Position numbers and translations under genes: made by a program. DNA of 64,000 nt from a virus (taxonomy: Duplodnaviria > Caudoviricetes). Location of the stretch: IMG/VR virus record IMGVR_UViG_3300009709_000023, positions 18,862-82,861 of that record. One strand, written 5' to 3'. Below, one piece after another: positions 1 through 41,448 of this stretch. The notes below the pieces were generated by a model. The model was not told the origin of the DNA. It saw only the letters and a list, made by a program, of their open reading frames with translations, and did not search any database. Numbering within the stretch: the stretch's first letter is position 1; each line of letters opens with the position of its first letter.

Positions 1-574
1 CCATGCCAGGAGCGCCCATACCTTGGTCAACGCTTGCTGCACCTTGCGACAATGTATCGGCAACGATACCGTCAAAAATTTGATTCAATGAACCACCACC
101 GTTACCGATAGCGTTCTTAGTAGGCAAAGGTTTAATCTTTGCGTCATCTTCAGCGACCAGTTGGGCGCTGCCGACTTGTGCCTTGTTAGGCACTTGGCCT
201 GCTACAATACCATTTTCGGTATTGCCATCACCGGCGTTAGCGATCTTTTGCAGGATCGCATCAGCGATTGCTGCACCAGCAGCGGCGGCTTGCTTATTCA
301 TAGAAGTTTCCTTGGTTTGCGTTTGGGCAGCAAAGCGTGCTGCAATTTCTTTAGCGAGGGCAGCACCCTTTTCGTGTGCTTCTTCGCATTCTTCGTCATC
401 TTTTTCTTCTTTTTCGTTTTCGCCTTCAGCTTTCTTTACTTCTTTTTCGCCTTTGCCGAAAAACGATTCAGCTTTTTCTTCATCCTTCTTCTCTTCCTTT
501 TCAGTCTCTTCGCTTGCTTGCTTATTCAGACCTGCCGAGGCAGAGAGGGTATTGATGATGTCATCGAGGTTCAT
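1..574 (-). CDS. Putative capsid scaffold / head protein (partial, runs off the left edge; missing from the ORF track)
   Basis: Hand translation from ATG at 574 (AGGA upstream) gives MNLDDIINTLSASAGLNKQASEETEKEKKDEKKAE... open to base 1. Charged low-complexity tract, KQA motifs, directly downstream of the prohead protease. Confidence 0.6.
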   Translation of the reverse strand, partial: MNLDDIINTLSASAGLNKQASEETEKEEKKDEEKAESFFGKGEKEVKKAEGENEKEEKDDEECEEAHEKGAALAKEIAARFAAQTQTKETSMNKQAAAAGAAIADAILQKIANAGDGNTENGIVAGQVPNKAQVGSAQLVAEDDAKIKPLPTKNAIGNGGGSLNQIFDGIVADTLSQGAASVDQGMGAPGM

Positions 575-624
575 CTTTAATCCTATATAAATGTTACTTA
601 ATCTTTGAAGAGCCAACCTTCAAA

Positions 625-2115
625 TCACCGGACATATTTATTAATAGTGCGGATCGTATCGGCGGTCGAAAGACAGTAGGTAGAACGATAGTCAGACGAC
701 TTCTTCACTAAAACGATTTTAACCTCTCCATCAGGAGCATTTTGCTCCTCTTGGATTTTTTCTTTGATAAGGGAGGTTATATACCACTTAGCTGCAAGCG
801 CAGCAGCTCCTAAAGCAATAAGTCTAGAGAACAGGTTTGGCTTTTCAGTTTCGCCTTCTTCTTTCATTTTTCTTGCTAAAGCAGCTTCAAATTTTTCTGT
901 TACAGTTGGCTCGATCTTAGGACCATTCCCGGAATAGCCAACGTTCGTACCTGGCATCCACATAACTGAAGACCGTTTTTCAACATATTCAGGAAGCATT
1001 GAAGATGCATGCACACTAGGAGCCAAGGCTACAGCAACTTCACGAAGTGGCCGGCCTTCCTGGTGTGAAAGTTCACTCGGAATATGTGAATGGACGTCCA
1101 TTCCTTTTTCACCTAGAATACGTTCCACCTCTTTTCCAATGCCTTTTAATTCATGCCCAAAATGTTTACGACCAATAATTTCAGCAAGAAAACCGACTGA
1201 AGGTGAAATACCCATAGACGCCATTGTTGTGAAAATGTCCTGAGGACTATGTACAAGAATGTCATCGATAGCGCGTTCTTCTGGGTCACGAACTTTATTT
1301 AGAATATCATCGAGTTGCCCGGATGTATCAACAACATGACCGGCCTCGGCAATTTCTTTAACGAGTTCTGAAACTTTTTTATGGCCAGCAGTTTTTTCTT
1401 TAAGACCTTCTTGTTCCGCTCTTTCAGCCGAACCTATTGGGCACTCTTCAGAAGTAGACGCTAATTTTTGGAGGAACGAAGAAGTTGGATCAGCACCTTT
1501 ATAAACGTAGCTGATATCATGGAAGCTTAAGGGCTTCTCATTAATTGCGTAGACACGGCGGCCATCTGGATAAATATGACCTAGCTCTTGGCGGAGATGT
1601 TTACAATATTGGGCACGAGTTGAAGCAATATTGCCACAGATACTACAAGTATCAGAAGCAACCTTACAAGCCATGGAAGTCGACGGGTACTCACCACGCT
1701 CAATTCTAGAAACTATATCACCGGCTCGTTTACGATCAATCTCAACAACGAGTTCAACACGATGCATACGTTCATTGTAAATAGCAAAGATGACTTTACC
1801 CATTGCAATGGTTTTGTCTTTGTTTACATGATGCTTGAAAAAGTGTGCCGGGTTAGTTTCAAAAGTTTTATAACTACGAAGCAAATTTTCTTCAGGAAAA
1901 TAATCGCAGTTTAAGTTGCATCCATAATATTCTGAAGCGCCCATAGCTAGAATATGGGCGTAAATTTTATCAGAAGATTGTTGTAGTTTTGATGCGTACT
2001 CAGAAATACGTAAATCTGCGGCTTGCTTAACAAGACCTTTTACGTTTTCTCTATCTATGATCCTGATGGAAGGTTCATCATAGAAATTATTCTGAATATC
2101 AAAAATTTTTAACAT
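625..2115 (-). CDS. Prohead (capsid maturation) serine protease with C-x2-C...C-x2-H zinc finger
   Basis: HFFKHHVNKD and YPSTSMACKV (candidate catalytic His and Ser) followed by CSICGN...YCKHL, an arrangement typical of HK97/assemblin-fold phage proteases. Head-cluster context. Confidence 0.7.
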   Translation of the reverse strand: MLKIFDIQNNFYDEPSIRIIDRENVKGLVKQAADLRISEYASKLQQSSDKIYAHILAMGASEYYGCNLNCDYFPEENLLRSYKTFETNPAHFFKHHVNKDKTIAMGKVIFAIYNERMHRVELVVEIDRKRAGDIVSRIERGEYPSTSMACKVASDTCSICGNIASTRAQYCKHLRQELGHIYPDGRRVYAINEKPLSFHDISYVYKGADPTSSFLQKLASTSEECPIGSAERAEQEGLKEKTAGHKKVSELVKEIAEAGHVVDTSGQLDDILNKVRDPEERAIDDILVHSPQDIFTTMASMGISPSVGFLAEIIGRKHFGHELKGIGKEVERILGEKGMDVHSHIPSELSHQEGRPLREVAVALAPSVHASSMLPEYVEKRSSVMWMPGTNVGYSGNGPKIEPTVTEKFEAALARKMKEEGETEKPNLFSRLIALGAAALAAKWYITSLIKEKIQEEQNAPDGEVKIVLVKKSSDYRSTYCLSTADTIRTINKYVR

Positions 2116-2121
2116 TACGAT

Positions 2122-2364
2122 TTAACTTTGATTTTCAAGGGTTTTGTGAATACCCTTTAAGGTTGACAAAGATTGTTCTTCCATACTAACTTTCTTCTCT
2201 TCTCGGCCTTCCCTGTGAAGACTCATACCGAGATTAGAAGCTCCCATGGCCAATCCGGTTCCGGACATACCAAAACCAAGCTGTTCAAGAGGAGTCATAT
2301 TTTTAAACCCCTCTCTAAGTCCGGTCTTCCACCCAGCAATTTTTTCGAGATAGCGATTAGCCAT
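2122..2364 (-). CDS. Small putative head protein with NRYLEKIA N-terminal tag
   Basis: MANRYLEKIAG start, Gly-rich hydrophobic middle, tightly packed in the operon. Confidence 0.6.
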   Translation of the reverse strand: MANRYLEKIAGWKTGLREGFKNMTPLEQLGFGMSGTGLAMGASNLGMSLHREGREEKKVSMEEQSLSTLKGIHKTLENQS

Positions 2365-2372
2365 GGCTTACC

Positions 2373-2867
2373 TTACATAAACATTTTAGGGCTGAATGCA
2401 TTATTCTGCTGGTAACGACTTTCCAGTTCCGTCAGCATTTTGATAGTATCTGGAAATATACCATTGAAGTGAATCGCATTGCTTAAAACAGCACCAAGGA
2501 CATTTGGATCGGCAGCAACCGAAGGGCTGAATTTAAAAATAGTTTCGCCGTACTGAGCAAGCTTAGCTTTATCAGCATCATGGAGAACAGGATTTGATTT
2601 GATAGCAGCATCTAAAGCTGCTTGAAATCGAGCATGACTAGAATGGGCTTTAGAATCCATTAATCCTTTCCCAGCAAGGGCTACTCCTCCGCCAACCACT
2701 AAGGCACCTAAGCCTTTTCCAAGACCCCCAGCAAATTGTTTTGCCAGTTCATTAGATAACCGTCCCCAATCGGCAGCCTCTTTATAAAAACCTTCCACGA
2801 AAGCGGCGGCTTTCTTTTCATCCCCATCAAACTCTTTAAGTGCGTGAGCCGCAATTTTATCTAACAT
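2373..2867 (-). CDS. Putative virion head protein
   Basis: MLDKIAA and KEAA motifs, Gly-rich hydrophobic segment, operon packing. Confidence 0.55.
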   Translation of the reverse strand: MLDKIAAHALKEFDGDEKKAAAFVEGFYKEAADWGRLSNELAKQFAGGLGKGLGALVVGGGVALAGKGLMDSKAHSSHARFQAALDAAIKSNPVLHDADKAKLAQYGETIFKFSPSVAADPNVLGAVLSNAIHFNGIFPDTIKMLTELESRYQQNNAFSPKMFM

Positions 2868-2882: not shown

Positions 2883-3905
2883 TTAGTGCAATGCTGACCA
2901 AACATCATTTGAAAGACCTGTTGTAGAATTAACACCCGGGTCGTAAGCCACAGCATCCAAAAGAGGTCCTGTTGCAAGGCCTCCAAGAGCTTTTGCATTT
3001 TTAGCTGCTGTAAGAGGTGCTTTGGCAACAGTCTTTACTACCTTACCAATTCCTTTACCAATCACTGATCCAGCTTGTTGTCCAACATTTACAGGCTTGA
3101 CTTGTGGAATCGTAGGACTTGGAGTTGAAGAACCAATTCCCATAAACGCTGCTTTCTTAACCAAGGGTTCCAGACGAGCATGATTGTTTTTACGTTCTTT
3201 CAACTCTTCAACAACGTTGCAAGCCTCTTTATGGAGAGAGGCAAGTGCTTTTACTTCACGAAGACTGGCTTCTTTAAACATATCGTAACTACCGAGATTA
3301 CGATAGGTTTTAACATCGCCAGTAACGAGATATGAAAGTTGTGAGAATTGATTTTCGTCTGTTATAGAAGCTAGCTTATCCATAGCTACCGGATCCGCAT
3401 TAACAAGTTTGGCTTGCTTGATCAACTTCTCAGCAAGAATAGAACTATATCCGCTTAAATGTTCGAGATGTTTACGATTGGATTCATACTCAGTTTCCAA
3501 TAGCTTGAACTGGGCTTCCTTAGATAAGCCAAGGATGTATTCTGTTTCTGCAGCTTTCTTATCCATTGCCGTCTTCTCAAGATTCGGAGCCGAGGCTTGC
3601 ACCTCTTTCTGGGCATCTGGTGTAGATGTTTTGGGAAGGCCATCTGGCAAAACCATATGGGCCAAAACTTCTTTGTAATTAGCGACTGGAAATTCAAAAG
3701 TTCTATCTTCTGCTTCACTCAACATCTTTAAATATGTGATGTTATTTGTCGCTTCAATTGTTCGTTTAATTTGCTCAGAATTAAATCCATGAGCCGATGC
3801 TTCCTTGGCGATACCAACGCTCAAAGGAATTTTATCGTTAAGGAAACCTTCAACTGTTTTTACAGAGAGATTTCTAATGAGTTCGGAGTTAAAGTCAGGT
3901 ACCAT
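2883..3905 (-). CDS. Putative virion head protein with many K-x-A sites
   Basis: KEAS, EKTA, KKAA, KQA, KLAS, KEAS, KKAA motifs; TAAAATAC motif 5 nt before the ATG. Confidence 0.6.
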   Translation of the reverse strand: MVPDFNSELIRNLSVKTVEGFLNDKIPLSVGIAKEASAHGFNSEQIKRTIEATNNITYLKMLSEAEDRTFEFPVANYKEVLAHMVLPDGLPKTSTPDAQKEVQASAPNLEKTAMDKKAAETEYILGLSKEAQFKLLETEYESNRKHLEHLSGYSSILAEKLIKQAKLVNADPVAMDKLASITDENQFSQLSYLVTGDVKTYRNLGSYDMFKEASLREVKALASLHKEACNVVEELKERKNNHARLEPLVKKAAFMGIGSSTPSPTIPQVKPVNVGQQAGSVIGKGIGKVVKTVAKAPLTAAKNAKALGGLATGPLLDAVAYDPGVNSTTGLSNDVWSALH

Positions 3906-4639: not shown

Positions 4640-6583
4640 TCATTCTCCTGCGGCTCCGACGGTTTCATCCAGAGCCTGATGAACATTAACCATGTTCTTT
4701 AACTTCATCAGATTCTGACCGAGCGTGATATACGCCGTCTTAAGAGAAGCGAGGAAAGAAAAAATTGAATCGGCGTCGTTTGCGTCTGCAAGTCTATCAA
4801 TGTGAACACGAGACATAAACAAAATACGACCAAGCTTATCTACAGCTTCTTCGATGTCTGGCAAATATTCACCAATTTCGATAATGACATCTGGTACTTG
4901 AAGCAACTCTGAAATAATCGTTGCTTCTGTAGTTTGCGCATCACCAAGCTCAGCGGAGTTAGCAACGCGTGGCAAGAATGCACCATTCATACCTACGTCT
5001 TTGCTACTATCGTCTGGGACCTGACCATACTGAGGGACATTAGCATAGTTCTCATCAGTGGAGAACGCTTGCTTAGTCATATAAATTTTAGCGAACTTGG
5101 ATAGCTTGGCTTCCTTAACAAAGCTCTTAGCAACATCAGGATCGATGCCTTCCTTGATAACGAGGCGTTCCATCAAGTCTGGCTCAGAACCAACTGGAGA
5201 GCCATTAACAGCAAATTCAACTCCGTCATAGCCGATATTTAATTCATCGCTCAGAAGTTTTAATTGGTTAGCTTCACGCTTTTTCCATGCGGCATTTGTA
5301 GAGCATTCAAGCTCAAGGCTTACATCTGAGCCAAGTTTAATTACAATTGCTGTAAAAGGAATATAAATGTCGTAGCTAACACGATCATATTGACCCTGGA
5401 AATTACGGTAAGCATAAAGATGTTCAACCTTACCAGTGGCAAGATTATAAACCTTGGCTTCAATACCCAAGCTACTGAGAACTACATTGGCAGCCTGGTA
5501 AGGACCGAGGAATGTACCATCTCCTAACATAATAGTGAACGTGTCATTCATGTACAAATCTTTGAGCATAACCGGAGGGTTCATATCAAAGAGTACTTTG
5601 AGAACTTCACGACGATCTAATTCTTGGCCAACGGCGATGAAAGATTTTCCAAGGGCGTAATCACCATTAGTAAAAATAGCCATTGGAATATGATTTGATC
5701 CGTTTGCATTCATCTTAGGAATAAAAGCTTCACGAGAAGTACCATTGGCGAAAGCAACGTCATAATCCTTTCCGCCATCCAAATCAGTTACTGCTTTAAA
5801 AACACCATCAACATCATAGTTCTGAGCAGAGACGGCGACACGGTAAGTAGGTTGTTTACCGATGAAATGGTATCCGTCATCCAAAATACTATTAATCTGG
5901 ACTTCTCCCAGGCCAGCAGCTTGGTTATCTGCAGTGGCGATGGAAATGGGAACCTGGTTAGTTGCTTGGGGGAGCGCTGCCATTGACGGTGCTTTGAGCA
6001 CGTCGAAGATGGCCTTGAGTCCGAATTGCTCATCAAGGTTGTCGTAGACAGATTTTTCAGCCGAGAGTTTTTCAAAGACTTCATCCTTGACTTCATATGG
6101 AAGTTGGGCTAGGAATTCCACGAGCCGACTCCGAGACGCATACACGAATTTGCCCGTCCTGGGCGGATTCAGTAGCCAATACGTTGAAGGATTCGTGTTT
6201 ACAGTCTCGGGAATTGTCTTCGATTTTCCTAAAGCCGAAGTATCCGTAGCGCTCATTGCTAAAATGAACTGAACTGTCTTCTTCGACAATGGGAAGAATT
6301 TTTGCTGCGAGTCAATAAAAATTGAGTCAATTGGATAAACGTTATCCGAGCGTGCTACAACTGGAACATAAAGTAATTCCGCACCTGGTCGAAGAATAAA
6401 TAATCCAACTCGGACACTTGGGTCTTCTCCCATTTCATCCGAACAGTCTTTAAAGGTCAAAATGAAAGGACCCAATTCAGGAAATGACTGAAGAAATTTT
6501 GCTAAACAAATATCAGCAAATTGATCTTGTAAATCTTGATTTTGGTCACCTGGGCTCATGCCCTGATTCATACCTGGATTCAT
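4640..6583 (-). CDS. Large hypothetical, probably structural, protein (647 aa)
   Basis: Long ORF in the head cluster with KEA/KQA motifs near the C-terminus; no recognisable catalytic motif. Confidence 0.6.
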   Translation of the reverse strand: MNPGMNQGMSPGDQNQDLQDQFADICLAKFLQSFPELGPFILTFKDCSDEMGEDPSVRVGLFILRPGAELLYVPVVARSDNVYPIDSIFIDSQQKFFPLSKKTVQFILAMSATDTSALGKSKTIPETVNTNPSTYWLLNPPRTGKFVYASRSRLVEFLAQLPYEVKDEVFEKLSAEKSVYDNLDEQFGLKAIFDVLKAPSMAALPQATNQVPISIATADNQAAGLGEVQINSILDDGYHFIGKQPTYRVAVSAQNYDVDGVFKAVTDLDGGKDYDVAFANGTSREAFIPKMNANGSNHIPMAIFTNGDYALGKSFIAVGQELDRREVLKVLFDMNPPVMLKDLYMNDTFTIMLGDGTFLGPYQAANVVLSSLGIEAKVYNLATGKVEHLYAYRNFQGQYDRVSYDIYIPFTAIVIKLGSDVSLELECSTNAAWKKREANQLKLLSDELNIGYDGVEFAVNGSPVGSEPDLMERLVIKEGIDPDVAKSFVKEAKLSKFAKIYMTKQAFSTDENYANVPQYGQVPDDSSKDVGMNGAFLPRVANSAELGDAQTTEATIISELLQVPDVIIEIGEYLPDIEEAVDKLGRILFMSRVHIDRLADANDADSIFSFLASLKTAYITLGQNLMKLKNMVNVHQALDETVGAAGE

Positions 6584-7403: not shown

Positions 7404-8201
7404 TCAACAACCCGGTGGAACCTGGTTATTCCCACTCGCAATATTCACAACTTGGCCAGAACTAGTAGTAGCAACGCTTGTTGCATTGCCAGAAACACCA
7501 CCAGCCGCCGAACCATTAGCAAGCACATACATTTTTCCATACAAAATATTACTGACGTATTGGTTTGGCGTCATACCGGTAGCTCTGTCATATCCCCCCA
7601 AGCCTAGATAAGCGCCAATTGAGGCTGCTATTTTGGAGCTAAAGTATTGACTAGAGTTACCATAGTGCCATCCACTTGAAGTTTGACTAATATGTTTGTA
7701 TTTACTTTCAAGAATAGTCAGGCCCGCCAAAATTTGGTTAGAAGCGGTAGCCTGCCCTTGATACAAAGTAGTTAAGTCTGTTCCAGGTGGAACACAAAGA
7801 ATACTGGCAATATCAGGTCTAGAGATTTGAATTTCAGTTTGGCCATTTTTTTTAGATGCCCCCTGAATAAAATTCCATCCCATACACTGCAAAAGTCCAT
7901 AGGCTTGGAGGCCCTGAGCAACCAACGATTTTTGTGTGGGAGTGCCCGTTGCCAAAAGATTTTGAATCGGTTGACTATTCCAGTAATCCTTAGCCCCAGA
8001 CGAAACAGACGTAGAAATAACAGGGCCAATAGCATTGTAGCTAAAAGAACTTTCCTGTTGGACCATAGCCATGACAATGTTAGCAATATTGCTTTCATTG
8101 TTTAAAGTAGAAGTGAAATATTGACCAAGCAGATTTGTTATAATTGTCTTAACATTCTGCTTGGTAGTGGTCGTAGTACTTGATCCGGCAACCGACGCCA
8201 T
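7404..8201 (-). CDS. Lysozyme-fold / SLT-like transglycosylase, probably virion-associated
   Basis: AMVQQESSF (catalytic Glu motif) and AYGLLQ; start overlaps the stop of the beta' C-terminal gene. Confidence 0.65.
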   Translation of the reverse strand: MASVAGSSTTTTTKQNVKTIITNLLGQYFTSTLNNESNIANIVMAMVQQESSFSYNAIGPVISTSVSSGAKDYWNSQPIQNLLATGTPTQKSLVAQGLQAYGLLQCMGWNFIQGASKKNGQTEIQISRPDIASILCVPPGTDLTTLYQGQATASNQILAGLTILESKYKHISQTSSGWHYGNSSQYFSSKIAASIGAYLGLGGYDRATGMTPNQYVSNILYGKMYVLANGSAAGGVSGNATSVATTSSGQVVNIASGNNQVPPGC

Positions 8202-10097: not shown

Positions 10098-10394
10098 ATG
10101 TTCTGTGCATTTCGTTGCCAATGGTTTGAAAAATCAGACGGAGTAGAACAAGCAGATGGTTTTTCCTATGCATTTCGAAGGGATGATTTGGAGCTTTGGA
10201 TTAAAACCCAAAGTAATCCAACATTCTCAGATGTGCTACAATACAGGGCTAGCAAAGTTGAGCTTGTTCGTATAACTTCTGAACTTGCTGAAAATATCTT
10301 TAGGCATCGAGTTTTTAATTGCGGTCTTGAAAATGGGGAAGCCCCTGATCTTGGACTGTTATCAGAATATAAGGCTTCCCTTGGCATCAACTAA
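10098..10394 (+). CDS. Hypothetical protein
   Basis: AGGAG RBS, first gene after the TGGTATAAGT motif. Confidence 0.6.
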   Translation: MFCAFRCQWFEKSDGVEQADGFSYAFRRDDLELWIKTQSNPTFSDVLQYRASKVELVRITSELAENIFRHRVFNCGLENGEAPDLGLLSEYKASLGIN

Positions 10395-10521
10395 CTTCAT
10401 CCCCGACATAATCACTAATCCTCTCACCAATTCCTCCGCCCCAACCCACCATTATACTTGGACTCGTGGGACCGGGTGGGGCGTTATTCCTGTAAACCCT
10501 TTTGATACAGAGAGAACTACC

Positions 10522-11976
10522 ATGGCGCAATCTACGTCTGCATCTGTCACCCCCGTTACTCCAGACCCGAATCGTCCGTATCGCCCGCCGTTGGTTGGAA
10601 CTCCTGACGTTACTATTCAGTACATCTCGGGTCAAATCCAACGAACCAGGGCATCTTCGGGTCAAGAAATTATAGTGCTTTTGACTCGCTTCCTTGAATT
10701 CGCAACGGCTAGGCCAACAGGCAGTATGACTTACTCCATGCTTGAACCTCCTCGTTGGCAGAATGCTGAAGAAGGATACCCTTTCGAATTGGTAATTTAT
10801 GGTAATAATCTACCGGCGGATTTAGCAAGCACTCAACAGGCACTTCGCCTCCTGATCAGCGGCTGTCCGGATATGATCTTTTCCAACACCATGGAAGGTC
10901 CGTCTGGAGAAAGCTCAATACCGAATATTTTCTTTACACCCGGTAGAGTCAAGTTCCTTCAAAACTTGGAGATTTTTGATACTCCATGTGGATTCGGTCT
11001 GAAGGGAAATTTCATGCTTAGGCGGTCGGCTACCAGGTATTACGCCTACCCTTTCAAGGTTCATATTGTTAAGTTATCAGACCAATCTTTGCAATTGTTT
11101 CACAGTCATATTGCGTTTAGTGGAGATCTGGAGAAGCTCATAGACAAAATGCTGGAGTACTGGGACCTAAAACTTGACAGAAGCATGATGGGGGCCGATT
11201 ATTCGTCTCTTTCTATGAACTATGATGGAGAAGATGTTTTTCTTACCCGTGGAAATTCTGTAATGAATTTTCTGCCCAACATTACTACTTCTATGTTTAG
11301 CGGCCTTTCGACAGAAGCGATTGTTAATTGTCTCAAAACCCTGAGGTTTTGCACGTCCGAGTCTTTGATTTACGCCCTGGGAAAGTTAGAACCAAACAAC
11401 CAACTACGTAAAGCAATTAGCACTCAGGTCAGTGGAAATACTGTACGTGGTGCTGACTATCACTATCCGTCCCCCCTAGATGAAGAAGCCAGACGAGAGG
11501 GGTTTAAAACATGGCTCGTTAGTTTGCTTCAGCAACGTTCCTTAGGCCCTCGTAATTTGCACGAGGATCCTGCCATGAAATGGGGCCTGGGGTATATCTC
11601 TGAATTGGAAAGGAGCAAGCAAACGGTCGGTGTCGTTGAAAACCGAATCAGTAACGCCGTCGGTAAAGAGGTATATAATAAGTTGGTAACACCGAAGTCC
11701 AAATTGGCGGTATTGGACGAGTACATCGCCCGTATCGAAGCTCAAGGTCTGGATTTCATGCACATCTCTGAAGGCCGGCTCGAACTTGATTTCATCGAGT
11801 TTGCTCAAGAAAAAGGCTTACCACTTCCTGATGAAGTCATAAACAAGGAAGAATTGGTTAGCAAACCTGAAGAGAAAGCTTCGATGCTACTCGTTGAAGC
11901 TGGAAGTAGCACTAAGTGTGATGTTAAGGATAACCCGGCTCCAATATGGGGTAAGGTTAAGGTAAGCGCCATTTAG
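10522..11976 (+). CDS. Large hypothetical protein (likely start 10522; track start 10285)
   Basis: Long ORF followed by a terminator; no recognisable motif. Confidence 0.65.
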   Translation: MAQSTSASVTPVTPDPNRPYRPPLVGTPDVTIQYISGQIQRTRASSGQEIIVLLTRFLEFATARPTGSMTYSMLEPPRWQNAEEGYPFELVIYGNNLPADLASTQQALRLLISGCPDMIFSNTMEGPSGESSIPNIFFTPGRVKFLQNLEIFDTPCGFGLKGNFMLRRSATRYYAYPFKVHIVKLSDQSLQLFHSHIAFSGDLEKLIDKMLEYWDLKLDRSMMGADYSSLSMNYDGEDVFLTRGNSVMNFLPNITTSMFSGLSTEAIVNCLKTLRFCTSESLIYALGKLEPNNQLRKAISTQVSGNTVRGADYHYPSPLDEEARREGFKTWLVSLLQQRSLGPRNLHEDPAMKWGLGYISELERSKQTVGVVENRISNAVGKEVYNKLVTPKSKLAVLDEYIARIEAQGLDFMHISEGRLELDFIEFAQEKGLPLPDEVINKEELVSKPEEKASMLLVEAGSSTKCDVKDNPAPIWGKVKVSAI

Positions 11977-12001: not shown

Positions 12002-12037
12002 AGCTAGGCCTGATGTATTTACGGCCTAGCTTTTTTT
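12002..12037 (+). terminator. Intrinsic terminator
   Basis: AGCTAGGCC / GGCCTAGCT stem followed by a T-run. Confidence 0.75.
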
Positions 12038-12054
12038 AGTTTTTCTCACTCACG

Positions 12055-13965
12055 ATGCCCTACGAAACTGCCCATCCGGTTGAACATGAACATCAGCTCA
12101 AACCTGGGACTGAAATTCTGTTTACCCGTCAACGCCATGAAGCTGAGCGTATGGGCTTACATTGGGATTACCGACTGGTAGTTGGGAATTTAGCTTACAG
12201 TTGGGCTACTAAAAAACCAATGCCAGAGCCAGGTAAAAGCATCGTTCTCTTTGAGCAACCGATTCATGACAAAGACTATGCCCTGAGTCCAAAAGTTGTT
12301 ATCCCTACTGGTAGTTATGGTGCTGGTGTTACTTACCTTGACTTTGTACGCAAAGCAAAGATCGGGGACAGTAGCACACAAAAACAAATGACAATCGTCA
12401 CCCATGACGGTGAGAAGTATTTGCTAAAGCATATTCCTGATACTCAATGGGGAGAGAAAGCTTGGTTGTTCCGTAATCTTGGGACAACAGGTAATAAGTA
12501 TTTGGAAAAGGCTGCTAAGCAAACACAGACTCAAAAACAAACTCCTCTTCAACCGCATCAAATTCGTGCGCTTGAAAAGTTGGAAGATGAGGGTGGTCTT
12601 GTAATGAATCACAGCACGGGCTCAGGGAAAACCCGAGTTATGCTTGAGGCTATTCGCCGCGCCCAACAAAAAGATAAAAACGCAAGAGTATTTATGGCTA
12701 CGCCAGCTTCATTACTACATAACGTAGATAAAGAAATTAAAAAGCATGGCATCCCCATTGATAAAAAGCGACTCGACTTATATTCATTCCAGAAAGCGAC
12801 TAGAAATGCAGATCAGCTTCGTAAAAATAAATACGCATTAGCAGTCGTGGACGAAGCCCATGGTCTCCGCAATGAAAGCACAAAGCGAACCCAAGAACTT
12901 CGAGACATTATAGAAGGATCTGATCAACGTCTTTTAGCTACTGCAACGTCTAACTACAATGCTATTAGCGATATGTCAACTTTGGTTAACATTGCCGCTG
13001 CTGATAAAGTGTTGCCTGAATCTAAGCGAGATATGTATGATAAATATGTGGAGACCTACAAAAAGCCTCGGGGACTCATCAGCACCATTTTACGTCATCA
13101 AGCCGACGAAGGCCAGCGGTTGAGAAACAAAAAGAAACTTCAGAGTGTCCTGGGTAAATACGTTGATTATTATGATACTAAGGACTCCGCTAATGGCCGT
13201 AGCCATTTCCCTAAAAAGACAGAGGAAACAATTGAAACGGAAATGTCTCCTGAACAAATGAAGTATTACAAATACGTTGAAGGAGACTTGCCTCTTTTAC
13301 TTAAATTTAAAATTCGTCACAATCTTCCATTGGATAAAAAGGAAAAGGCAAGCTTAAATAGTTTCTCCACAGGGGTGCGCCAAGCCTCCAATTCGTATAG
13401 GCATTTGCATCAGCATGGGGAAGATCTGCCGTACACACCAAAAATTGAAGCCGCTACTAAAAAACTTCAAGAAGCGATTAAGGCTAACCCACGCCATAAA
13501 GCCTTGGTGTATTCTAATTATCTTGACGCCGGTTTGAACGAATACTCCAACAAGCTTAATAAACTTGGGATTAAGCACGGTAAATACACAGGGGAACTTT
13601 CCAAGGAAGAGAAGCATAAACTAGTCGAAGATTACAACAAAGGTAAGCTTCCAGTGATGCTCATTTCTTCAAGTGGTTCTGAAGGTCTTGACACGAAAGG
13701 TACAAGGCAAATTCAAATTCTTGAACCGCATTTTAACAAGAGCAAAATTAAGCAGGTAATTGGTCGTGGAGTTCGTTACAATTCCCATGAGCATTTACCA
13801 GAAAAAGAAAGAGAGGTTCATGTTGAACATTATCTTTCAACATATCCTAAGAGTCATTTCGGTAAAACGCCTTATAGTATTGATAAATATTTGAGTGAAA
13901 ATGCTGAAGACAAAGACGAACTATTTAACGAAGTAAACGGACTAATGCGTGAGAACAATGAATAA
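12055..13965 (+). CDS. LigD-type 3'-phosphoesterase (PE) domain fused to an SF2 (SNF2-like) helicase
   Basis: N-terminal RHEAERMGLHWDYRL...SWATKK...IHDKDYA...IPTGSYGAG matches the LigD PE signature. Linker NKYLEKAA. Then HSTGSGKT, DEAH, ATAT, SEGLD, QVIGRGVR. Confidence 0.8.
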   Translation: MPYETAHPVEHEHQLKPGTEILFTRQRHEAERMGLHWDYRLVVGNLAYSWATKKPMPEPGKSIVLFEQPIHDKDYALSPKVVIPTGSYGAGVTYLDFVRKAKIGDSSTQKQMTIVTHDGEKYLLKHIPDTQWGEKAWLFRNLGTTGNKYLEKAAKQTQTQKQTPLQPHQIRALEKLEDEGGLVMNHSTGSGKTRVMLEAIRRAQQKDKNARVFMATPASLLHNVDKEIKKHGIPIDKKRLDLYSFQKATRNADQLRKNKYALAVVDEAHGLRNESTKRTQELRDIIEGSDQRLLATATSNYNAISDMSTLVNIAAADKVLPESKRDMYDKYVETYKKPRGLISTILRHQADEGQRLRNKKKLQSVLGKYVDYYDTKDSANGRSHFPKKTEETIETEMSPEQMKYYKYVEGDLPLLLKFKIRHNLPLDKKEKASLNSFSTGVRQASNSYRHLHQHGEDLPYTPKIEAATKKLQEAIKANPRHKALVYSNYLDAGLNEYSNKLNKLGIKHGKYTGELSKEEKHKLVEDYNKGKLPVMLISSSGSEGLDTKGTRQIQILEPHFNKSKIKQVIGRGVRYNSHEHLPEKEREVHVEHYLSTYPKSHFGKTPYSIDKYLSENAEDKDELFNEVNGLMRENNE

Positions 13966-14941
13966 GTATTTAGAAAAAATTGCAGAAGATGATGAAGAAA
14001 AAAAGCCGGTGAATGCCTTTGGAAAACTTGGGATAGGTTACTTAGGGGCTTCTCTTGGACTCGGTGCGAGTGTCGTTACAAATAAACCTTTGACAAGGGA
14101 TATCATACATCAAAGTAACAACGAGCATGGTATTTCTGACCATGGTACTGTCAAGAAATTTATGCGAGATAATAACTTTAATAAGCATAATATGACGTTG
14201 AATCATCGTATGCATATTACGAAAAAACTTCCTGAGAGTTTCCAGTATCTTCATCAAAATCACCATAGTCCCGCAGAGCTTACTGATCCCCATACAGGCA
14301 GACATATTCTGTTAGGTATGAGGGATAAAAAAACCGGAAAACTTCGTAATTTAGATGTTGCAATGCATGAACTTGGTCATGCTAAAGATTTCCGCACGCA
14401 TACTGAACTAAAGCATAAAGCACAGATTATTGGAAATACTAAAGGTAATCATGCAGCTATGTTGGGAGTCGCTGCAATGTCCAACGAAGACACTAGACAC
14501 TACGCTCCTCTTGTCGCTGCCGTTCCGGGTGCTATTGTCCTTCGTTCGGAAGCTGCGGCAAATTATCATGCTTATCATGGTATTAAAGCTCACAAAGGAG
14601 CTAAGGCGGCAAATAAATTTTTAACTCGTATGGTTCCTAAACAAATGGCAGGGTATGTTGCAGGAACTCTCGGCCCTGCGGCTGGTTTATATGGTGCCAA
14701 TAAACTTATTGACTATGTTCATAAAAAGCGTGGTATTGATAAGCAAGCTGAAATGTCCGACATGGAAGCCGCTCGTGAATTTCATCATGCTGAAGAAGAT
14801 GATGTCAAGAAATACGAAGAGGCTAAAAAGACGGCAAAAAATCCTAAGCTATTAAAGGCTATTAACTATGCCCTTCCAGAAGAAAAGATCCATGCTCGTT
14901 TGTTTGGTGAAGCATTGAAAGACGAAGAAAAAAGTGAATAA
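13958..14941 (+). CDS. Zinc metallopeptidase-like protein with NKYLEKIA tag (likely start 13958)
   Basis: HELGH motif with downstream SEAAAN (third-ligand Glu candidate); Gly-rich hydrophobic segments. Confidence 0.65.
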   Translation: MNKYLEKIAEDDEEKKPVNAFGKLGIGYLGASLGLGASVVTNKPLTRDIIHQSNNEHGISDHGTVKKFMRDNNFNKHNMTLNHRMHITKKLPESFQYLHQNHHSPAELTDPHTGRHILLGMRDKKTGKLRNLDVAMHELGHAKDFRTHTELKHKAQIIGNTKGNHAAMLGVAAMSNEDTRHYAPLVAAVPGAIVLRSEAAANYHAYHGIKAHKGAKAANKFLTRMVPKQMAGYVAGTLGPAAGLYGANKLIDYVHKKRGIDKQAEMSDMEAAREFHHAEEDDVKKYEEAKKTAKNPKLLKAINYALPEEKIHARLFGEALKDEEKSE

Positions 14942-15098
14942 GTATCTTGAAAAGCTTGCAGTAAGACTCCATTTATACGTTCATTCTCAAGATGAAACTA
15001 AGAAGAGGTGGGTGGAGGAAGGAAAGTCTGTTCCAGAAGGATATGTAAAGGCTGGTCCTACTTTCTATCGCCGCAAAGGTCAAGGTAAAAAGAAATGA
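14934..15098 (+). CDS. 54-aa basic protein with NKYLEKLA tag (not in the ORF track)
   Basis: GTG-start hand translation MNKYLEKLAVRLHLYVHSQDETKKRWVEEGKSVPEGYVKAGPTFYRRKGQGKKK; overlaps both neighbours. Confidence 0.7.
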   Translation: MNKYLEKLAVRLHLYVHSQDETKKRWVEEGKSVPEGYVKAGPTFYRRKGQGKKK

Positions 15099-16012
15099 AT
15101 TTGATTTCCAGAAAAGAAGCTAAAGCGCAAGGATTAAAATTTTATTTCACTGGTAAACCATGCAAGCACCGGCATGTTTGTCCTAGACGCGTTTCTAGCA
15201 AGTGCTGTACAGGCTGTGAAAAACAGTTTTATGATAAAAACAAAACTGAAATACTAAAGTCACGAGTTGAATATTCTAAACGCAATAAAAATAAAATTTC
15301 TGAATACCAAAAGAAATATCGAGAAAACAACAAAAATAGAACTTCCGAATATCTAACTGACTATTTTCAAAAAAATAAAGAAGAAATTTACCTTCAGCGT
15401 CGTCAATATATAGAAAGAAATAAAGCCTATTTTTTTAACTGGCATTCTGAATATAGAGAAAAACATAGAGACATATTCAATGTTCGTTCATCGATAAGAA
15501 GGGCTATTAAATTACAGGCAATACCTACTTGGGCAAATAAAACAGAAATACATGAATTTTATAAAGATGCAGTTCGTATAAGTTATGAAACTGGTGTTAA
15601 ATACAATGTTGATCATATTGTCCCATTACAATCAGATTTTGTTTGTGGATTACACTGGGAAGGAAATTTGCAAATTCTAACAAAAACTGAAAATCTCTCA
15701 AAAAGCAATAGACATTGGCCTGACATGCCAGATACTTCTGACCCAGAAATTAAACACTTAGTAAAACAATTTAAAAAAATGAATAAATATTTATCAAAAA
15801 TAGCAGAAGCATATGATGTTGTAGAAGGTAATAACGGGGCGTCTATTGGTCGAAAAGGCGGCTCTACTCTAGATGGTAAAGACCAAAAAACAACTCCTGC
15901 CTCTGTACGTAACAGAATGCTCGAAGCTGGGAGGGCCAGTGATCCGGACCAACCTGTAAATATGGGTTCAGTGACTGGTGGCTATAGCGATCCAGGCATT
16001 CTGGGCTCCTAA
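15095..16012 (+). CDS. HNH endonuclease read in frame into a 77-aa NKYLSKIA-tagged protein (internal ATG 15779)
   Basis: FYFTGKPCKHRH...C..C; YNVDHIVPLQSDFVCGLHWEGN; WPDMPDTSDPE; then MNKYLSKIAE. Confidence 0.8.
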   Translation: MNLISRKEAKAQGLKFYFTGKPCKHRHVCPRRVSSKCCTGCEKQFYDKNKTEILKSRVEYSKRNKNKISEYQKKYRENNKNRTSEYLTDYFQKNKEEIYLQRRQYIERNKAYFFNWHSEYREKHRDIFNVRSSIRRAIKLQAIPTWANKTEIHEFYKDAVRISYETGVKYNVDHIVPLQSDFVCGLHWEGNLQILTKTENLSKSNRHWPDMPDTSDPEIKHLVKQFKKMNKYLSKIAEAYDVVEGNNGASIGRKGGSTLDGKDQKTTPASVRNRMLEAGRASDPDQPVNMGSVTGGYSDPGILGS

Positions 16013-16022
16013 AAATAAGATC

Positions 16023-16970
16023 ATGAACAAATACTTGACCAAATTGGCTAGTGACGGAATTATCAAAACCGAACATGGTGAAAAAATTCCTTATGAGCGC
16101 CACAAATATGTGGAGAAAGATTGGTCACATCTAGAAAATCCTGTCGGGTCTAATAAATTCGATGGGGCTCATTTCTTTTTAGTTGTTCAACCAGACGGAA
16201 CATTTAAGTATTATTCCCGTAGAGAGAGCGTTAAGGGGCATCATCCTGAACGTTCTGCTCAAATTCCTCATCTCAACGCCAAGCCTTTGCCTGAATACGC
16301 TGGTGATGTGCTCTCTACAGAGTTGATCCATACTGGCTTTTATAAGAACAAGAAAGAATCCCACCCAAAAGTATCAGGGATTCTGAATTCTCTCAAGGAC
16401 CGGGCTATTGCAACTCAAAAAGAAACTGGTCCCGTCCGTGCCGTCCTCCTAGATGTCAAGGATCATAACCTTCCAACTTTCGGATCGAAGATTGATTACC
16501 TAAAAAAGTTTGAACAAGCATATGGTAATTCAGACGTCCTTTACACCCCTAAATTTGTTGAGGGCAAAGAAAACATCAACAAGTACCTTCAGCAAGTTTC
16601 GTCTAAAGGCAGCGAAGGTATCATCGTAACAGATAAGAATATTCCTGAATCAGAGAACGTTCGTTACAAAGTTAAAAACTACAATACTTATAACTTGAAG
16701 GTTATCGGGTTTCAACAAGAAGTAGACATTCATGGTAATCTTAAAAAGTCCATGGGTGCCCTCCTCCTGGCCGACGCGACTGGACGGTTCGTTGGCAAAG
16801 TCGGAACAGGATTTGATCGTAAGACACGGATAGAATCCTGGAATAATCAACCCCTTTGGATTGGTCGGCAAATCCAAGTTAAAGCATATCCACCTAGTAA
16901 ACATATGGGTCATATCCGTTTTCCTATTTATAACGGTGAACCTGATGGTCAACTTGACACAATAATTTAG
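16023..16970 (+). CDS. ATP-dependent DNA ligase with NKYLTKLAS tag (likely start 16023)
   Basis: KFDG adenylation motif, EGIIV, VKNY, OB-fold GKVGTGFD and RFPIY. Confidence 0.9.
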   Translation: MNKYLTKLASDGIIKTEHGEKIPYERHKYVEKDWSHLENPVGSNKFDGAHFFLVVQPDGTFKYYSRRESVKGHHPERSAQIPHLNAKPLPEYAGDVLSTELIHTGFYKNKKESHPKVSGILNSLKDRAIATQKETGPVRAVLLDVKDHNLPTFGSKIDYLKKFEQAYGNSDVLYTPKFVEGKENINKYLQQVSSKGSEGIIVTDKNIPESENVRYKVKNYNTYNLKVIGFQQEVDIHGNLKKSMGALLLADATGRFVGKVGTGFDRKTRIESWNNQPLWIGRQIQVKAYPPSKHMGHIRFPIYNGEPDGQLDTII

Positions 16971-18566: not shown

Positions 18567-19718
18567 TTAAAGCTTTGCGTGTTCTTCAATAATCAAAGGA
18601 GTGTTTTCTTTGATGTGACCATTCTTTAGAGCTTTGAGTGCATCAAGCTCAGTTTTGAAAGTAACAGGTTTTTGTTCAGAATCTGGTTCAGTCAAATATG
18701 AACTGCCCACAATTGCTTCGTGGCCCGGAGCCATCATTGAAATACCGATACCTTTACGATAATCATACGCATGAGCTTCTGGCAATAACTTTTCACGAGC
18801 TTCATTAATTGCCTCGGGAGTCATAGGCGTGTGAATAGACAAAGCGTCACCATCAAAGTCACCGGAATATAAAGCAAGGTGAAGAGGATTAATACCTAAA
18901 GTTTTGCCTTCGACAGGAACTGGGTAGTGAGCAGTAACGTTTGTACGCATTAATGTAGGCGCACGATTCAGAATTACTGGAATCTGCTTAATTAATTTAT
19001 TAAAAGAATTAACTGCAGCAGGTCCACGACTCTCAATTTCTTTTTTAGCTCGAATCAGATCGAAACCTTGCTGAACTAAATCACGCATAATGTGGTACTC
19101 GTACAGAGTCCACAACATGTCTTTGGGAACAGCTACTTCATTGAAACCAAGATTAGCTTCCGCTCGAATCGTCGCACGGCCTGAGAAGTCTTGTTTACGA
19201 CTCAGAAGTTTGGATTGGAAGTAACCGCCTTTTGGGCCGTACTTACCAGCGATTTGAGCAATGAAACCATTTAAATCTTTACCACGAGCGTATCCACTGA
19301 TTGCATCGCCGAGCCCAAAAATAGCTTTGGCACCATCGTATAGCGCTTTGCGTTCTGGAACAAGAGCGTGGGGTTCCAAGGTGTGCCCTAGCTCTTTCAG
19401 ATTATTATTCACCGACATATGATCTCGGTAGAGATAGTTTACATCGGCAAATTCGATACGGTTACCCCCTGTTTGAACCGGAGGCCGGACAATCGGAGGA
19501 ACAACTGGCATGTGCCTAAGAATGAATGCATGCTCGGGTTTAATACCAAGCTTGCGTAACCCCGCCAGGTATTTCAGACGTTTAACAATGCCATCTTTTT
19601 TCGATTTGGATTTAGTGGATTGGTATTCTTTTTGAAGGTCTTTAATTTGCTTTTCGACATCGATGTCCCCAAGCATAGATTCAAAAGCTAATCCACCAAC
19701 TTTAACTTCGTCTGTCAT
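18567..19718 (-). CDS. rpoC: RNA polymerase beta' subunit, catalytic middle part
   Basis: MPVVPPIVRP, LLSRKQDFSGRATI, LNRAPTL, catalytic GDFDGD. Confidence 0.92.
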   Translation of the reverse strand: MTDEVKVGGLAFESMLGDIDVEKQIKDLQKEYQSTKSKSKKDGIVKRLKYLAGLRKLGIKPEHAFILRHMPVVPPIVRPPVQTGGNRIEFADVNYLYRDHMSVNNNLKELGHTLEPHALVPERKALYDGAKAIFGLGDAISGYARGKDLNGFIAQIAGKYGPKGGYFQSKLLSRKQDFSGRATIRAEANLGFNEVAVPKDMLWTLYEYHIMRDLVQQGFDLIRAKKEIESRGPAAVNSFNKLIKQIPVILNRAPTLMRTNVTAHYPVPVEGKTLGINPLHLALYSGDFDGDALSIHTPMTPEAINEAREKLLPEAHAYDYRKGIGISMMAPGHEAIVGSSYLTEPDSEQKPVTFKTELDALKALKNGHIKENTPLIIEEHAKL

Positions 19719-23684: not shown

Positions 23685-24401
23685 TTAGGCTAGGTTAATC
23701 TCATCCCAAAAACTAGTATAGTCTTCATGCCTATACCTATCAGGGTCAAACTTATTGCTCTTTGTCAAATTTTCTGATGCCGTCACTATTCTCAGATTAA
23801 AGTGATTGTGTAACCCACACACCAAAGGATGTTTAAGTGGCAAAATATGGTCTGCATGGTATGTAGTTTTTGATTCTTTGTTGAGTAATTTAATTTTTTT
23901 AAAAATTTGTCTGAGAATCTTCTTATCTGCCCACCTGCACTGAGTGGTGCGTTTAAGAGCTTCTCTACATGCATTATGTACTGTAAATGCAAGAGGATTT
24001 TCTTTGTACTTCTCTTTGTACCTTAGTCTAACTTCTTCTGAAGAATAGTATTCTTTCCTATATTCTCTAAGCTTTGTATAATTTTTTTCATTATACTCAC
24101 GAAAATACTCCTTTACTTTTTCTTTGTTAAATTGACGCCATTCTAGTTTGGCTTTAGAAAGGACCTCTTTATTTTCGGTACGATACTTTTTTTGATATTC
24201 TTTATAAGAAGTCCTTTCTTGGTACTCTTTCATATATTCCGCTCGTTCATTTTTATGAGATTTAGCCCAAGCTTTGCTACAATCCACACATGTAGTAGAA
24301 CTTGCGTACCTCTCTGAAAAATGACCATTTTTGCAAGGCTTGCCAGTATAATAAACTTTTAAGCCCTGCTCTTTAGCGTCTTTTCTACTAATGACTTCCA
24401 T
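23685..24401 (-). CDS. HNH homing endonuclease
   Basis: YYTGKPCKNGH...CVDC; YHADHILPL...VCGLHNHFN. Confidence 0.85.
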   Translation of the reverse strand: MEVISRKDAKEQGLKVYYTGKPCKNGHFSERYASSTTCVDCSKAWAKSHKNERAEYMKEYQERTSYKEYQKKYRTENKEVLSKAKLEWRQFNKEKVKEYFREYNEKNYTKLREYRKEYYSSEEVRLRYKEKYKENPLAFTVHNACREALKRTTQCRWADKKILRQIFKKIKLLNKESKTTYHADHILPLKHPLVCGLHNHFNLRIVTASENLTKSNKFDPDRYRHEDYTSFWDEINLA

Positions 24402-41382: not shown

Positions 41383-41448
41383 GTATGAAATATTGACAAA
41401 TTCATTTCTTTCATGATAATATTTGTCTTTATGATGAAAGAAATGACA

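Follow-up and report, generated by a model that had tools for sequence, protein, structure and literature searches.

Tagged genes of the window and the contig

The window, that is, the whole stretch of 64,000 nucleotides presented here, covers positions 18862-82861 of a viral contig of 82,861 bp, and the contig was scanned whole. Between positions 12055 and 16970, the window carries a five-gene block encoding a phosphoesterase-helicase, a HExxH protein, two small proteins and a DNA ligase, all of which contain the peptide NKYLEKIA or a variant of it. The first gene is an open reading frame (ORF) of 636 aa (12055..13965, plus strand), in which a LigD-type 3'-phosphoesterase and an SNF2-family helicase are connected by an internal tag. 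This ORF matched SNF2-rel_dom (2.5e-14), Helicase_C (1.6e-14) and LigD_N (1.2e-6, below the LigD_N cut-off) in Pfam and phrog_62 (1.8e-45) in PHROG, and showed 41% identity over 466 aa with Gp217 of the cultured relative Arash. Its AF2 model (mean pLDDT 87) has two folded domains and, between them, one segment of low confidence (residues 146-159), and the tag NKYLEKAA (12493..12516, plus strand; residues 147-154) sits in this sole flexible linker, at the joint of phosphoesterase and helicase. In relatives, the helicase begins directly at the tag (MNKYLEKIA), and LxKxA or tag joints invariably come after the phosphoesterase module.

The second gene (13958..14941, plus strand), whose start overlaps the helicase stop by 8 nt, encodes a protein of 327 aa beginning with MNKYLEKIAE (ATG at 13958, N of the motif at 13961). 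It contains a glycine-zipper segment and an HExxH motif, belongs to no family in Pfam or PHROG, and has no orthologue in Arash or D69. Its structural neighbours were weak (M56/M78/SprT-like, TM 0.24-0.36), and we consider it a zincin-like candidate. The third gene (14934..15098, plus strand) encodes a basic protein of 54 aa beginning with V/M-NKYLEKLA (GTG start at 14934, motif N at 14937), and its start likewise overlaps the stop of the preceding gene. It is followed by an HNH endonuclease ORF (15095..16012, plus strand; phrog_1035, endonuclease VII, 4.4e-13; phrog_26577, 1.6e-26), which continues in frame into a tagged tail of 77 residues, MNKYLSKIAE... (15779..16012, plus strand; ATG at 15779, motif N at 15782). 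Three other HNH paralogues in the window have 215-252 aa. The 77-aa unit, a singleton family in our census of tagged proteins, is either encoded by a small gene of its own, with the internal ATG as its start, or fused as a module to the HNH ORF. The block ends with an ATP-dependent DNA ligase of 315 aa, MNKYLTKLAS (16023..16970, plus strand; ATG at 16023, motif N at 16026), which matched phrog_114 (1.6e-21) and scored below the cut-offs of Pfam DNA_ligase_A_M and OB_2. In relatives, the same ligase is found behind an N-terminal or an internal tag. Apart from this block, a glycine-zipper protein of 80 aa, MANRYLEKIAG (2122..2364, minus strand; ATG at 2364, motif N at 2358), is encoded directly upstream of the protease gene, and its family is present in most tag-bearing relatives.

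All six tag sites of the window listed in the earlier note were found at their positions. The view that their carriers have unrelated folds holds for the SNF2 helicase, the ATP-dependent ligase, the LigD-type phosphoesterase and the HNH endonuclease, whereas for the protein that was called a peptidase the only grounds are the HExxH motif and the weak structural neighbours. The tag is also common beyond the listed sites: the pattern N[KR]YL.[KR].[AS] occurs 10 times in the contig, six of them inside the window, whereas mononucleotide shuffles average 0.04 and never exceed 1. The remaining four matches are N-terminal in small ORFs that lie directly upstream of the window, in the interval from the protease/scaffold genes to the major capsid gene. 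The tags of the contig form two clusters, namely the five-gene block and a small-protein set near the protease, scaffold and capsid genes, whose cargo is five small tagged proteins of basic or glycine-zipper type. Accordingly, the single operon of tagged genes proposed earlier does not hold, and beyond the contig the tagged genes form a clade-wide repertoire. Because codons vary from copy to copy and the similarity between copies ends at the motif borders, the tag is a peptide-level signal, conserved as protein and not as a DNA repeat.

Head module, protease and the [LM]-x-K-x-A motif

The head module of the window lies on the minus strand. The prohead maturation protease (496 aa, 625..2115; phrog_18299, 1.7e-12) has the T4 gp21/assemblin fold. 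The best PDB match of its AF2 model was T4 gp21 (5JBL_B; Z 11.3, rmsd 2.7 A over 131 residues), followed by herpesvirus proteases (Z 8-10). In this model, residues 1-31 are disordered, as far as the first [LM]xKxA site, and residues K30, A32, L215, K217, A219 and K241 are invariant in 34 homologues. At least 533 homologues of the protease were found in metagenomes. The adjacent scaffold-like protein is acidic and Ala-rich (381 aa, 1..616; about 176 of its 381 codons, the C-terminal end, lie upstream of the window) and has five [LM]xKxA sites, compared to 0.55 in shuffles. On the other side of the protease, a protein of 164 aa (2373..2867) begins with MLDKIAA and so opens with a cleavage-type motif that lacks the NKY part. 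The next protein (340 aa, 2883..3905) has eight sites, compared to 0.47 in shuffles, and is probably a core or scaffold component; its Arash orthologue, Gp220, has six. A head protein of 647 aa (4640..6583) with two sites near residue 500 is the orthologue of Arash Gp218, an abundant virion protein (PMC10585845).

With its second half (L-E-K-I-A), the tag conforms to a more general motif, [LM]-x-K-x-A. This motif is concentrated in the head module and the tagged block, which hold 36 of the 43 sites of the contig. The head proteins of the contig contain 25 sites, versus 3.06 in shuffles (at most 9 in 2000 shuffles), and 50 related loci contain 1300, versus 182 expected. In Arash, 29 sites were counted in head proteins (2,778 aa) and one in 12 tail-region proteins (6,115 aa). 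The sites are located at the N-terminus of the capsid protein, at both ends of the protease domain, where the invariant residues of the homologues are those of the sites, at module joints and, in many copies, in scaffold-like proteins. The flanks of general sites in the 50 loci also match those of the tag, with E at P4 and S/A/E/G after the Ala; the residue after the Ala is S in 27% and A in 20% of general sites, and S in 23% of tags. The subunits of the virion RNA polymerase have neither the tag nor the [LM]xKxA motif. Two neighbouring patterns are somewhat raised in head proteins too ([LM].K..A, 12; [LM]..K.A, 8), and the motif could be a structural repeat of helical scaffold proteins instead of a cutting site. 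The K-x-A site described earlier is indeed where the tag ends, but it is better written [LM]-x-K-x-A, with a cut probably after the Ala.

The tag in related phages and the helicase of Arash

The Arash-like group, to which the contig belongs, is a widespread clade with hardly any cultured members, whose phages are about 180 kb in size and carry a virion RNA polymerase. A back-translated tag search of IMG/VR matched 53 stretches in about 30 phage contigs, and yielded 105 distinct tagged proteins in about 40 BLAST-unrelated families. The same tag gave only three isolated chance matches in 596 Gb of prokaryote genomes, and was absent from the cultured relatives Arash and D69. In 93 of the 105 instances, a Met lies at most four residues upstream. 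Across all instances, N1, Y3, L4 and K6 are invariant and A8 is kept in 95%, and conservation drops off sharply past position 8. In relatives, 2-7 tags are found at most 10 kb away from the protease gene, and near-complete relatives (CheckV 92-100%, 168-193 kb) have 6-9 tags each, confined to 16-40 kb. The small tagged proteins are mostly basic, with a net charge above +2 in 44 of 50 and a mean of +7.9.

In purified virions of Arash, Gp217 was detected with 38 unique peptides and ranked 7th of 116 proteins by mass spectrometry (PMC10585845). Since this helicase orthologue is packaged without a tag, the tag is not the only route into the capsid, and the presence of Gp217 in virions therefore supports packaging of the helicase family and not the action of the tag. 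The preparation, with 116 proteins including metabolic enzymes and with scaffold-like proteins at 100% coverage, is too impure for processing to be read from it.

A proposed capsid-targeting propeptide and its alternatives

Based on these results, we propose that NKYLEKIA serves as a capsid-targeting propeptide and is cleaved off by the prohead protease, by analogy with the capsid-targeting sequence (CTS) of T4, and we put the probability of this reading at roughly two in three. Proteins with the tag, mostly at the extreme N-terminus and sometimes at a module joint, would be recruited into the core of the assembling prohead. There, the gp21-fold protease would cut within the tag, at the [LM]-x-K-x-A site of its second half and probably behind the Ala, and the cut would free the mature cargo inside the head, from where it would exit with the DNA at infection. 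We infer that [LM]xKxA is the cutting site, that the tagged proteins are packaged, and that the NKY-containing tag directs the packaging. The analogy with T4 had already been drawn in the earlier note. On the one hand, each computational test has favoured it, namely the portable N-terminal tag, the head motif, the gp21 fold, the basic cargo and the helicase orthologue in virions. On the other hand, packaging, cleavage and sufficiency of the tag stand as predictions, and a cultured relative packages its helicase untagged.

In T4, the CTS MKTYQEFIAE of the internal proteins (IPI, IPII, IPIII) is cut off by the prohead protease gp21 (Mullaney and Black 1996; PMC8442874, PMC3012670, PMC5694885), and these proteins are small and highly basic (PMC8442874). 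As in T4, otherwise unrelated, mostly small basic proteins begin with a common peptide of about 10 residues. This peptide ends in a motif found again in scaffold, capsid protein and protease of the respective phage, and occurs alongside a protease of the gp21 fold (Z 11.3); the cargo set also differs between related phages. MKTYQEFIAE and MNKYLEKIAE in register are identical at six of ten positions (M1, Y4, E6, I8, A9 and E10), a single post-hoc comparison that has a chance probability of about 1e-3, counts the initiator Met, and is too short to separate descent from convergence. The E10 is carried by only 20 of the 105 tags. Unlike T4, with its L/I-x-E sites, the predicted site [LM]-x-K-x-A has no terminal Glu, and the tag-bearing phage belongs to the Arash-like group (about 180 kb, virion multisubunit RNA polymerase) and not to the T4 group. 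Also, the tag is found on large enzymes (SNF2 helicase, ATP ligase and the HExxH protein) and at internal joints of multi-module ORFs, and its address function is predicted from sequence.

Other systems show partial likeness. The ejection or inner-body proteins of phiKZ and SPN3US carry long N-terminal propeptides cut at S/A/G-x-E by a gp21-like protease (PMC5694885, PMC10052503). These are large myoviruses in which a virion RNA polymerase is packaged along with numerous ejection proteins, some with membrane-type segments in the mature form, and their propeptides have been proposed to target proteins into the prohead. However, their propeptides have 80-130 residues instead of a shared short tag, the cleavage motif ends in Glu, and the polymerase subunits of the present phage show no propeptide motif. 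In phage P1, the N-terminal packaging signal of DarB, of which the first 30 residues are sufficient (PMC9024508), loads a large defence-against-restriction protein into the head for co-injection with the DNA, and can carry a foreign reporter. That signal is longer than nine residues, is described in PMC9024508 for DarB only and not for many families, and depends on the stepwise assembly of Dar proteins, with no protease-site logic described.

The tag-clade protease shares its fold (Z 8-10) with the assemblins of herpesviruses and, like them, is predicted to cut after an Ala followed by a small residue. The maturation and release sites of assemblins have the consensus (V/L/I)-x-A followed by Ser, for example Y-V-K-A/S, whereas the tag clade fixes Lys at P3 and Leu/Met at P5. 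Considering this resemblance, a cut after Ala is plausible for the gp21/assemblin fold. More tentatively, and with somewhat less than even confidence, we suggest that this gp21-fold protease lineage abandoned Glu-ending sites, as in T4 and phiKZ, for L/M-x-K-x-A, which it would cut behind the Ala in the manner of herpesvirus assemblins, and that a near-invariant universal tag of eight residues evolved around the site. The clade may then use tag and site as standard connectors to load and cut apart a swappable protein kit injected with the genome, including a DNA end-healing set (LigD-type phosphoesterase, SNF2 helicase and ATP ligase) and the zincin-like protein, and the octapeptide may be a minimal transferable packaging signal.

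If the propeptide reading is true, head assembly and cargo loading would for the first time become accessible in the Arash-like group, and a gp21-fold protease with a new cutting rule would be predicted. One could then read from sequence which proteins these phages inject, DNA repair enzymes included, and we know of no earlier report of such enzymes as phage head cargo. To our knowledge, a tag of eight residues would also be the shortest packaging signal, and it would be useful for loading foreign proteins into capsids, as already done with T4 and P1.

An unlikely alternative is that the tag is a processing site or activation switch only, clipped by the prohead protease or another protease, and that the proteins reach the head by other features or by partners such as the virion RNA polymerase. 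Consistent with this, the tag's second half cannot be told apart from the general head-protein motif, the orthologous helicase is packaged by Arash without a tag, and the 164-aa protein starts with MLDKIAA without NKY. However, comparison with 1037 general sites gave N1, K2 and Y3 as invariant in tags and without preference at the equivalent positions of general sites, and the tag therefore holds information beyond the needs of cutting. Moreover, it is not evident what purpose a cut eight residues from the N-terminus would serve on its own, and a packaging determinant of its own in each of about 40 unrelated families is unlikely.

It is rather improbable that the tag docks proteins onto a hub other than the head interior, such as the virion RNA polymerase, the cell membrane, a chaperone or a phage compartment. 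Several tagged proteins (helicase, ligase and phosphoesterase) do act on DNA, many have glycine-zipper, membrane-type segments (glycine-zipper-like in 47 of 99 tagged proteins versus 82 of 366 controls), and the helicase gene of Arash directly follows an RNA polymerase subunit gene. Yet the tags are confined to the neighbourhood of head genes and end in a head-specific motif, which has one site in tail proteins and none in polymerase subunits. As for an import signal of nucleus-forming jumbo phages (Chimalliviridae), a sequence search for the shell protein chimallin with phiKZ gp54 gave no match at E<=1 in the contig (47% complete), Arash or D69, while the phiKZ positive control matched.

We give very little credence to a RiPP-like leader, by which one modifying enzyme would serve many precursors. 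Over about 35 loci, the genes co-occurring with tags are the protease, scaffold-like proteins, the capsid protein and RNA polymerase pieces, with no modifying enzyme detected among them by a non-exhaustive Pfam and PHROG survey, and half of the tagged cargo is longer than 117 aa and includes folded enzymes. Least credible is a nucleic-acid element, either an A/T-rich start region boosting translation or a recombination junction for cassette shuffling: the commonest coding form is A/T-rich (ATGAATAAATATTTAGAAAAAATTGC) and tags do lie at module boundaries that vary between phages, but the DNA upstream of tags is not conserved, synonymous codons are free (all six Leu codons and both codons each of N, K, Y and E among the 105 tags, and CGN/AGR for the R variant), and internal in-frame copies retain the peptide.

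The tag in the present genome and its relatives

We consider that the octapeptide NKYLEKIA is best explained as a capsid-targeting tag that is trimmed by the prohead protease, and we give this reading, which the earlier note had proposed, a probability of about 65%. The evidence for it is convergent but circumstantial. What is new, in a phage clade of which little is known, is the tag, the predicted cutting rule and the types of cargo.

The observation underneath this reading was borne out and extended. All six sites named previously (2364, 12493, 13958, 14934, 15779 and 16023) were found at these positions. When the whole contig of 82,861 bp (CheckV completeness estimated at 47%) was searched with the pattern N[KR]YL.[KR].[AS], 10 copies were obtained, compared with 0.04 in shuffled sequence. 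The window takes up bases 18862-82861 of this contig, and four of the copies precede it by a short distance, each at the N-terminus of an ORF (108, 83, 61 and 178 aa). Of the 10 copies, eight stand directly after a start codon or a few residues from one. The other two are internal to ORFs: one at residue 147 of the ORF 12055-13965, separating a LigD-type phosphoesterase domain from an SNF2 helicase, and one at 15779, in frame behind an HNH endonuclease and with its own ATG.

We recovered relatives by a profile-based scan and with the back-translated tag pattern; when IMG/VR was scanned with the protease (625-2115, minus strand) as the single query, no close relatives were obtained. The back-translated MNKYLEKIA pattern found 53 stretches on about 30 IMG/VR contigs (15-193 kb), often several per contig, and a six-frame scan of these stretches and the present contig gave 105 distinct tagged proteins across the clade. 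A Met lies at most four residues upstream of the tag in 93 of the 105. N1, Y3, L4 and K6 of the tag are invariant in all instances; K2 (92%, otherwise R), E5 (87%), I7 (78%, otherwise V, L or A) and A8 (95%) vary. At position 9, S, E, A and G predominate, and there is no conservation beyond it. The DNA around the copies in the contig aligns across the motif codons only and those codons differ among copies, while the 105 instances draw on every one of the six codons for Leu and on both of those for Asn, Lys, Tyr and Glu. Therefore, selection acts on the peptide, and a DNA repeat, a promoter or a start-region element was rejected, since synonymous sites vary freely.

After removal of the tag, the tagged proteins form about 40 families that are unlinked by BLAST, of which only the helicase and the ligase are recognisable and the rest are mostly orphans. 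Near-complete relatives (168-193 kb, CheckV 92-100%) carry 6-9 tags each, all of them within a part of the genome that spans 16-40 kb. A search of 596 Gb of prokaryote genomes gave three matches to the pattern, isolated and unrelated, and none of the strings NKYLEK, NRYLEK and NKYLTK occurred in the literature searched, where matches to YLEKIA were unrelated words. The protease has at least 533 homologues in a large protein collection. Among 61 protease-centred loci, those with a protease about 42% or more identical to that of the present contig have 1-7 tags within 10 kb of it, and the more distant loci mostly have zero. Accordingly, the tag is derived: it belongs to a subclade and builds on a motif that the whole group shares.

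In the present contig, the tagged genes of the minus strand sit within the head-assembly module. In transcription order, this module encodes a 647-aa head protein, proteins of 252, 340 and 164 aa, a tagged protein of 80 aa, the protease (496 aa, phrog_18299), a scaffold-like protein of 381 aa, tagged proteins of 178, 61 and 83 aa, a 212-aa protein, a tagged protein of 108 aa, a 144-aa protein and the major capsid protein (297 aa, phrog_2522). The plus-strand block (12055-16970), in which gene starts and stops overlap, is flanked by pieces of a multisubunit RNA polymerase (8201-10027, 18567-19718 and 19957-23403, all minus strand; PHROG beta/beta' families) that are interleaved with head genes. 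None of these three pieces carries the tag or an [LM]xKxA site, and in the virion proteome of the cultured Salmonella phage Arash their orthologues rank with the most abundant proteins. Tags are absent from the other 47 kb of the contig.

The plus-strand genes are headed by a 563-aa ORF (10285-11976, with an uncertain TTG start) that carries neither the tag nor an [LM]xKxA site and belongs to no Pfam or PHROG family. Between this ORF and the helicase gene, a GC-rich hairpin (aggcc...ggcct) followed by a T run (ttttttt) at 12003-12040 on the plus strand resembles a terminator, and the tagged block may therefore form its own transcription unit. Four paralogous HNH homing-endonuclease genes (15095-16012, 41413-42171 and 58645-59292 on the plus strand; 23685-24401 on the minus strand) share an N-terminus of the M(N/E)xISRKEAKxxGL type, and the first of them has no stop of its own and continues in frame into the tagged small gene.

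The [LM]xKxA site and the head protease

Because the tag ends in L-E-K-I-A, we counted the motif [LM].K.A in the contig and found that 36 of its 43 sites lie within the head module or the tagged block. Eleven untagged head-module proteins hold 25 sites, compared with 3.06 in composition-preserving shuffles (maximum 9 in 2000); permuted control motifs mostly gave 1-5, and two neighbouring spacings gave 8 and 12. The capsid protein has its site at residues 26-30 and the protease at residues 28-32 and 215-219, and three Ala/Lys/Glu-rich proteins (212, 381 and 340 aa) have 5-8 sites each. In an alignment of 34 protease homologues, K30, A32, L215, K217, A219 and K241 are invariant. Ser147 of the protease is conserved as well. 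Across 50 protease-centred loci, 1300 sites occur on the protease strand against 182 expected, with E at P4 and with S (27%), A (20%), E (12%) or G (11%) after the Ala, and these flank preferences equal those of the tag. In relatives without the tag, pentapeptides recur only as LEKAA, LVKEA and similar forms.

Taken as putative substrates, the site-bearing set (the capsid protein N-terminus, the ends of the protease, multi-site scaffold-like proteins and internal proteins) matches the list of T4 gp21 substrates (PMC5694885). The 212-aa head-module protein (contig positions 16672-17310, minus strand, upstream of the window) has six sites. Almost every tag-bearing locus has a detectable copy of it and few other loci do, and it is a candidate core protein or tag receptor; this pattern is confounded by relatedness and may reflect divergence alone.

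The AF2 model of the protease has a mean pLDDT of 75, mostly above 80 in the catalytic domain. Disorder covers residues 1-31, as far as the first site, and the second site stands at the end of the catalytic domain. Herpesvirus proteases and T4 gp21 were the top Foldseek rows, and on structural re-alignment the best match was T4 gp21 (5JBL_B, Z 11.3, rmsd 2.7 Å, 131 residues), followed by the herpesvirus assemblins (Z 8-10). Herpesvirus assemblins cut after Ala and before Ser, and by this analogy a cut by the phage protease after A8 of the tag would be plausible. At about residues 155-173 of the protease, C157, C160, C171 and H173 (CxxC...CxH) are invariant and probably form a zinc-binding insert in the gp21-fold domain; we know of no such insert in T4 gp21.

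Tagged proteins and module joints

The tagged proteins have a median length of 117 aa, and 44 of the 50 that are no longer than 120 aa have a net charge above +2 (mean +7.9). A glycine-zipper pattern occurs in 47 of 99 complete tagged proteins, compared with 82 of 366 control ORFs. The cargo of the capsid targeting sequence (CTS) of T4 consists of small basic internal proteins (PMC8442874), and ejection proteins typically have membrane-type segments (PMC5694885). For the tagged HExxH protein (13958-14941), the tentative identification as a peptidase leans on weak structural neighbours, with no sequence match in Pfam, PHROG or PDB. A PARP-like match in a tagged 434-aa protein of a relative (E 3e-4, below the cut-off) was unsupported by PDB and PHROG searches.

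The phosphoesterase module is the N-terminal part of its ORF in every case. In closer relatives LxKxA and/or the tag comes immediately after it, and then come modules that differ by phage; in two distant relatives a ligase is fused to it with no tag in between. In these two (in the region L109:6775-8160 and at L119:5550-6794), a LigD-type phosphoesterase is joined to an ATP ligase with a KIDGAA motif, as in bacterial LigD, and in the tag-bearing clade the two activities are on separate tagged units. Modelled with AF2 (mean pLDDT 87), the 636-aa protein shows two confident domains and a single flexible internal segment, residues 146-159, which is the tag. Some other ORFs of relatives have two or three tags in series. 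These joints and the motif in head proteins fit a system that uses the site and the tag as cuttable connectors.

Comparison with T4 and with cultured relatives

The T4 CTS, MKTYQEFIAE, and the commonest E-ending tag here, MNKYLEKIAE, have M1, Y4, E6, I8, A9 and E10 in common; at least four matches in the eight non-Met positions have a chance of about one in a thousand, in a single post-hoc comparison. The two systems also share an N-terminal address peptide with a protease site in it (both predicted in the present phage), small basic cargo, a variable repertoire and a gp21-fold protease. However, the present tag site lacks the terminal Glu of T4, the tag also stands at internal joints, the cargo includes enzymes and the phage group is different. 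The large anti-restriction-system protein DarB of phage P1, with its N-terminal packaging signal, offers a second precedent (PMC9024508). A phage-nucleus import signal was rejected, as a sequence search of the present contig (47% complete), of Arash and of the Vibrio phage D69 gave no chimallin homologue. In a non-exhaustive survey of tag-bearing loci, no radical-SAM enzyme was detected with the tags.

Searches with the RNA polymerase and capsid proteins found, at about 50% identity, the phages Arash of Salmonella (181 kb) and D69, D148 and D181 of Vibrio (each about 187 kb), and these phages have the same protease and head-gene order as the present contig. Arash and D69 have neither the tag nor another N-terminal peptide common to their proteins, their recurrent 5-mers being only of the LxKxA type (LEKAA, LVKEA). 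Neither the HExxH protein nor the ligase has an orthologue in these two phages. In the Arash head module, eight proteins (Gp218-Gp226 minus Gp219) have 29 sites in 2,778 aa and Gp219 has none, compared with one site in the 6,115 aa of twelve tail-region proteins (Gp227-Gp238) and none in the polymerase subunit and helicase. The predicted cuts would make Gly31 the first residue of the capsid protein Gp226 and would fall after A32 and A220 of the protease Gp222 and within Gp220, Gp223 and Gp225.

For the Arash virion proteome, protein-level counts are published, with an annotation table as the supplement. Within the Arash locus compared here (130699-171583), it gives 100% coverage for Gp221 and Gp223, which are scaffold-like and rich in predicted cutting sites. 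This suggests that the virion preparation contained proheads or free protein, and it limits what the dataset can say about processing. Since 116 proteins were detected, presence alone is weak evidence, and we used the rank by unique peptides instead. Arash Gp217, which shares 41% identity with the tagged helicase across 466 aa, has 38 unique peptides and ranks 7 of 116 (PMC10585845), compared with 32 for the portal, 30 for the capsid protein and 2-14 for metabolic enzymes. Considering that the Arash helicase is tag-less, Arash packages it by another route. Orthologues of the Arash-like clade start 3-5 residues before the first helicase motif, whereas those of the tag-bearing clade have (M)NKYLEKIA and 3-10 further residues before it (about 55 in one outlier). 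This difference at the N-terminus indicates that a family of virion components gained the tag as an added module.
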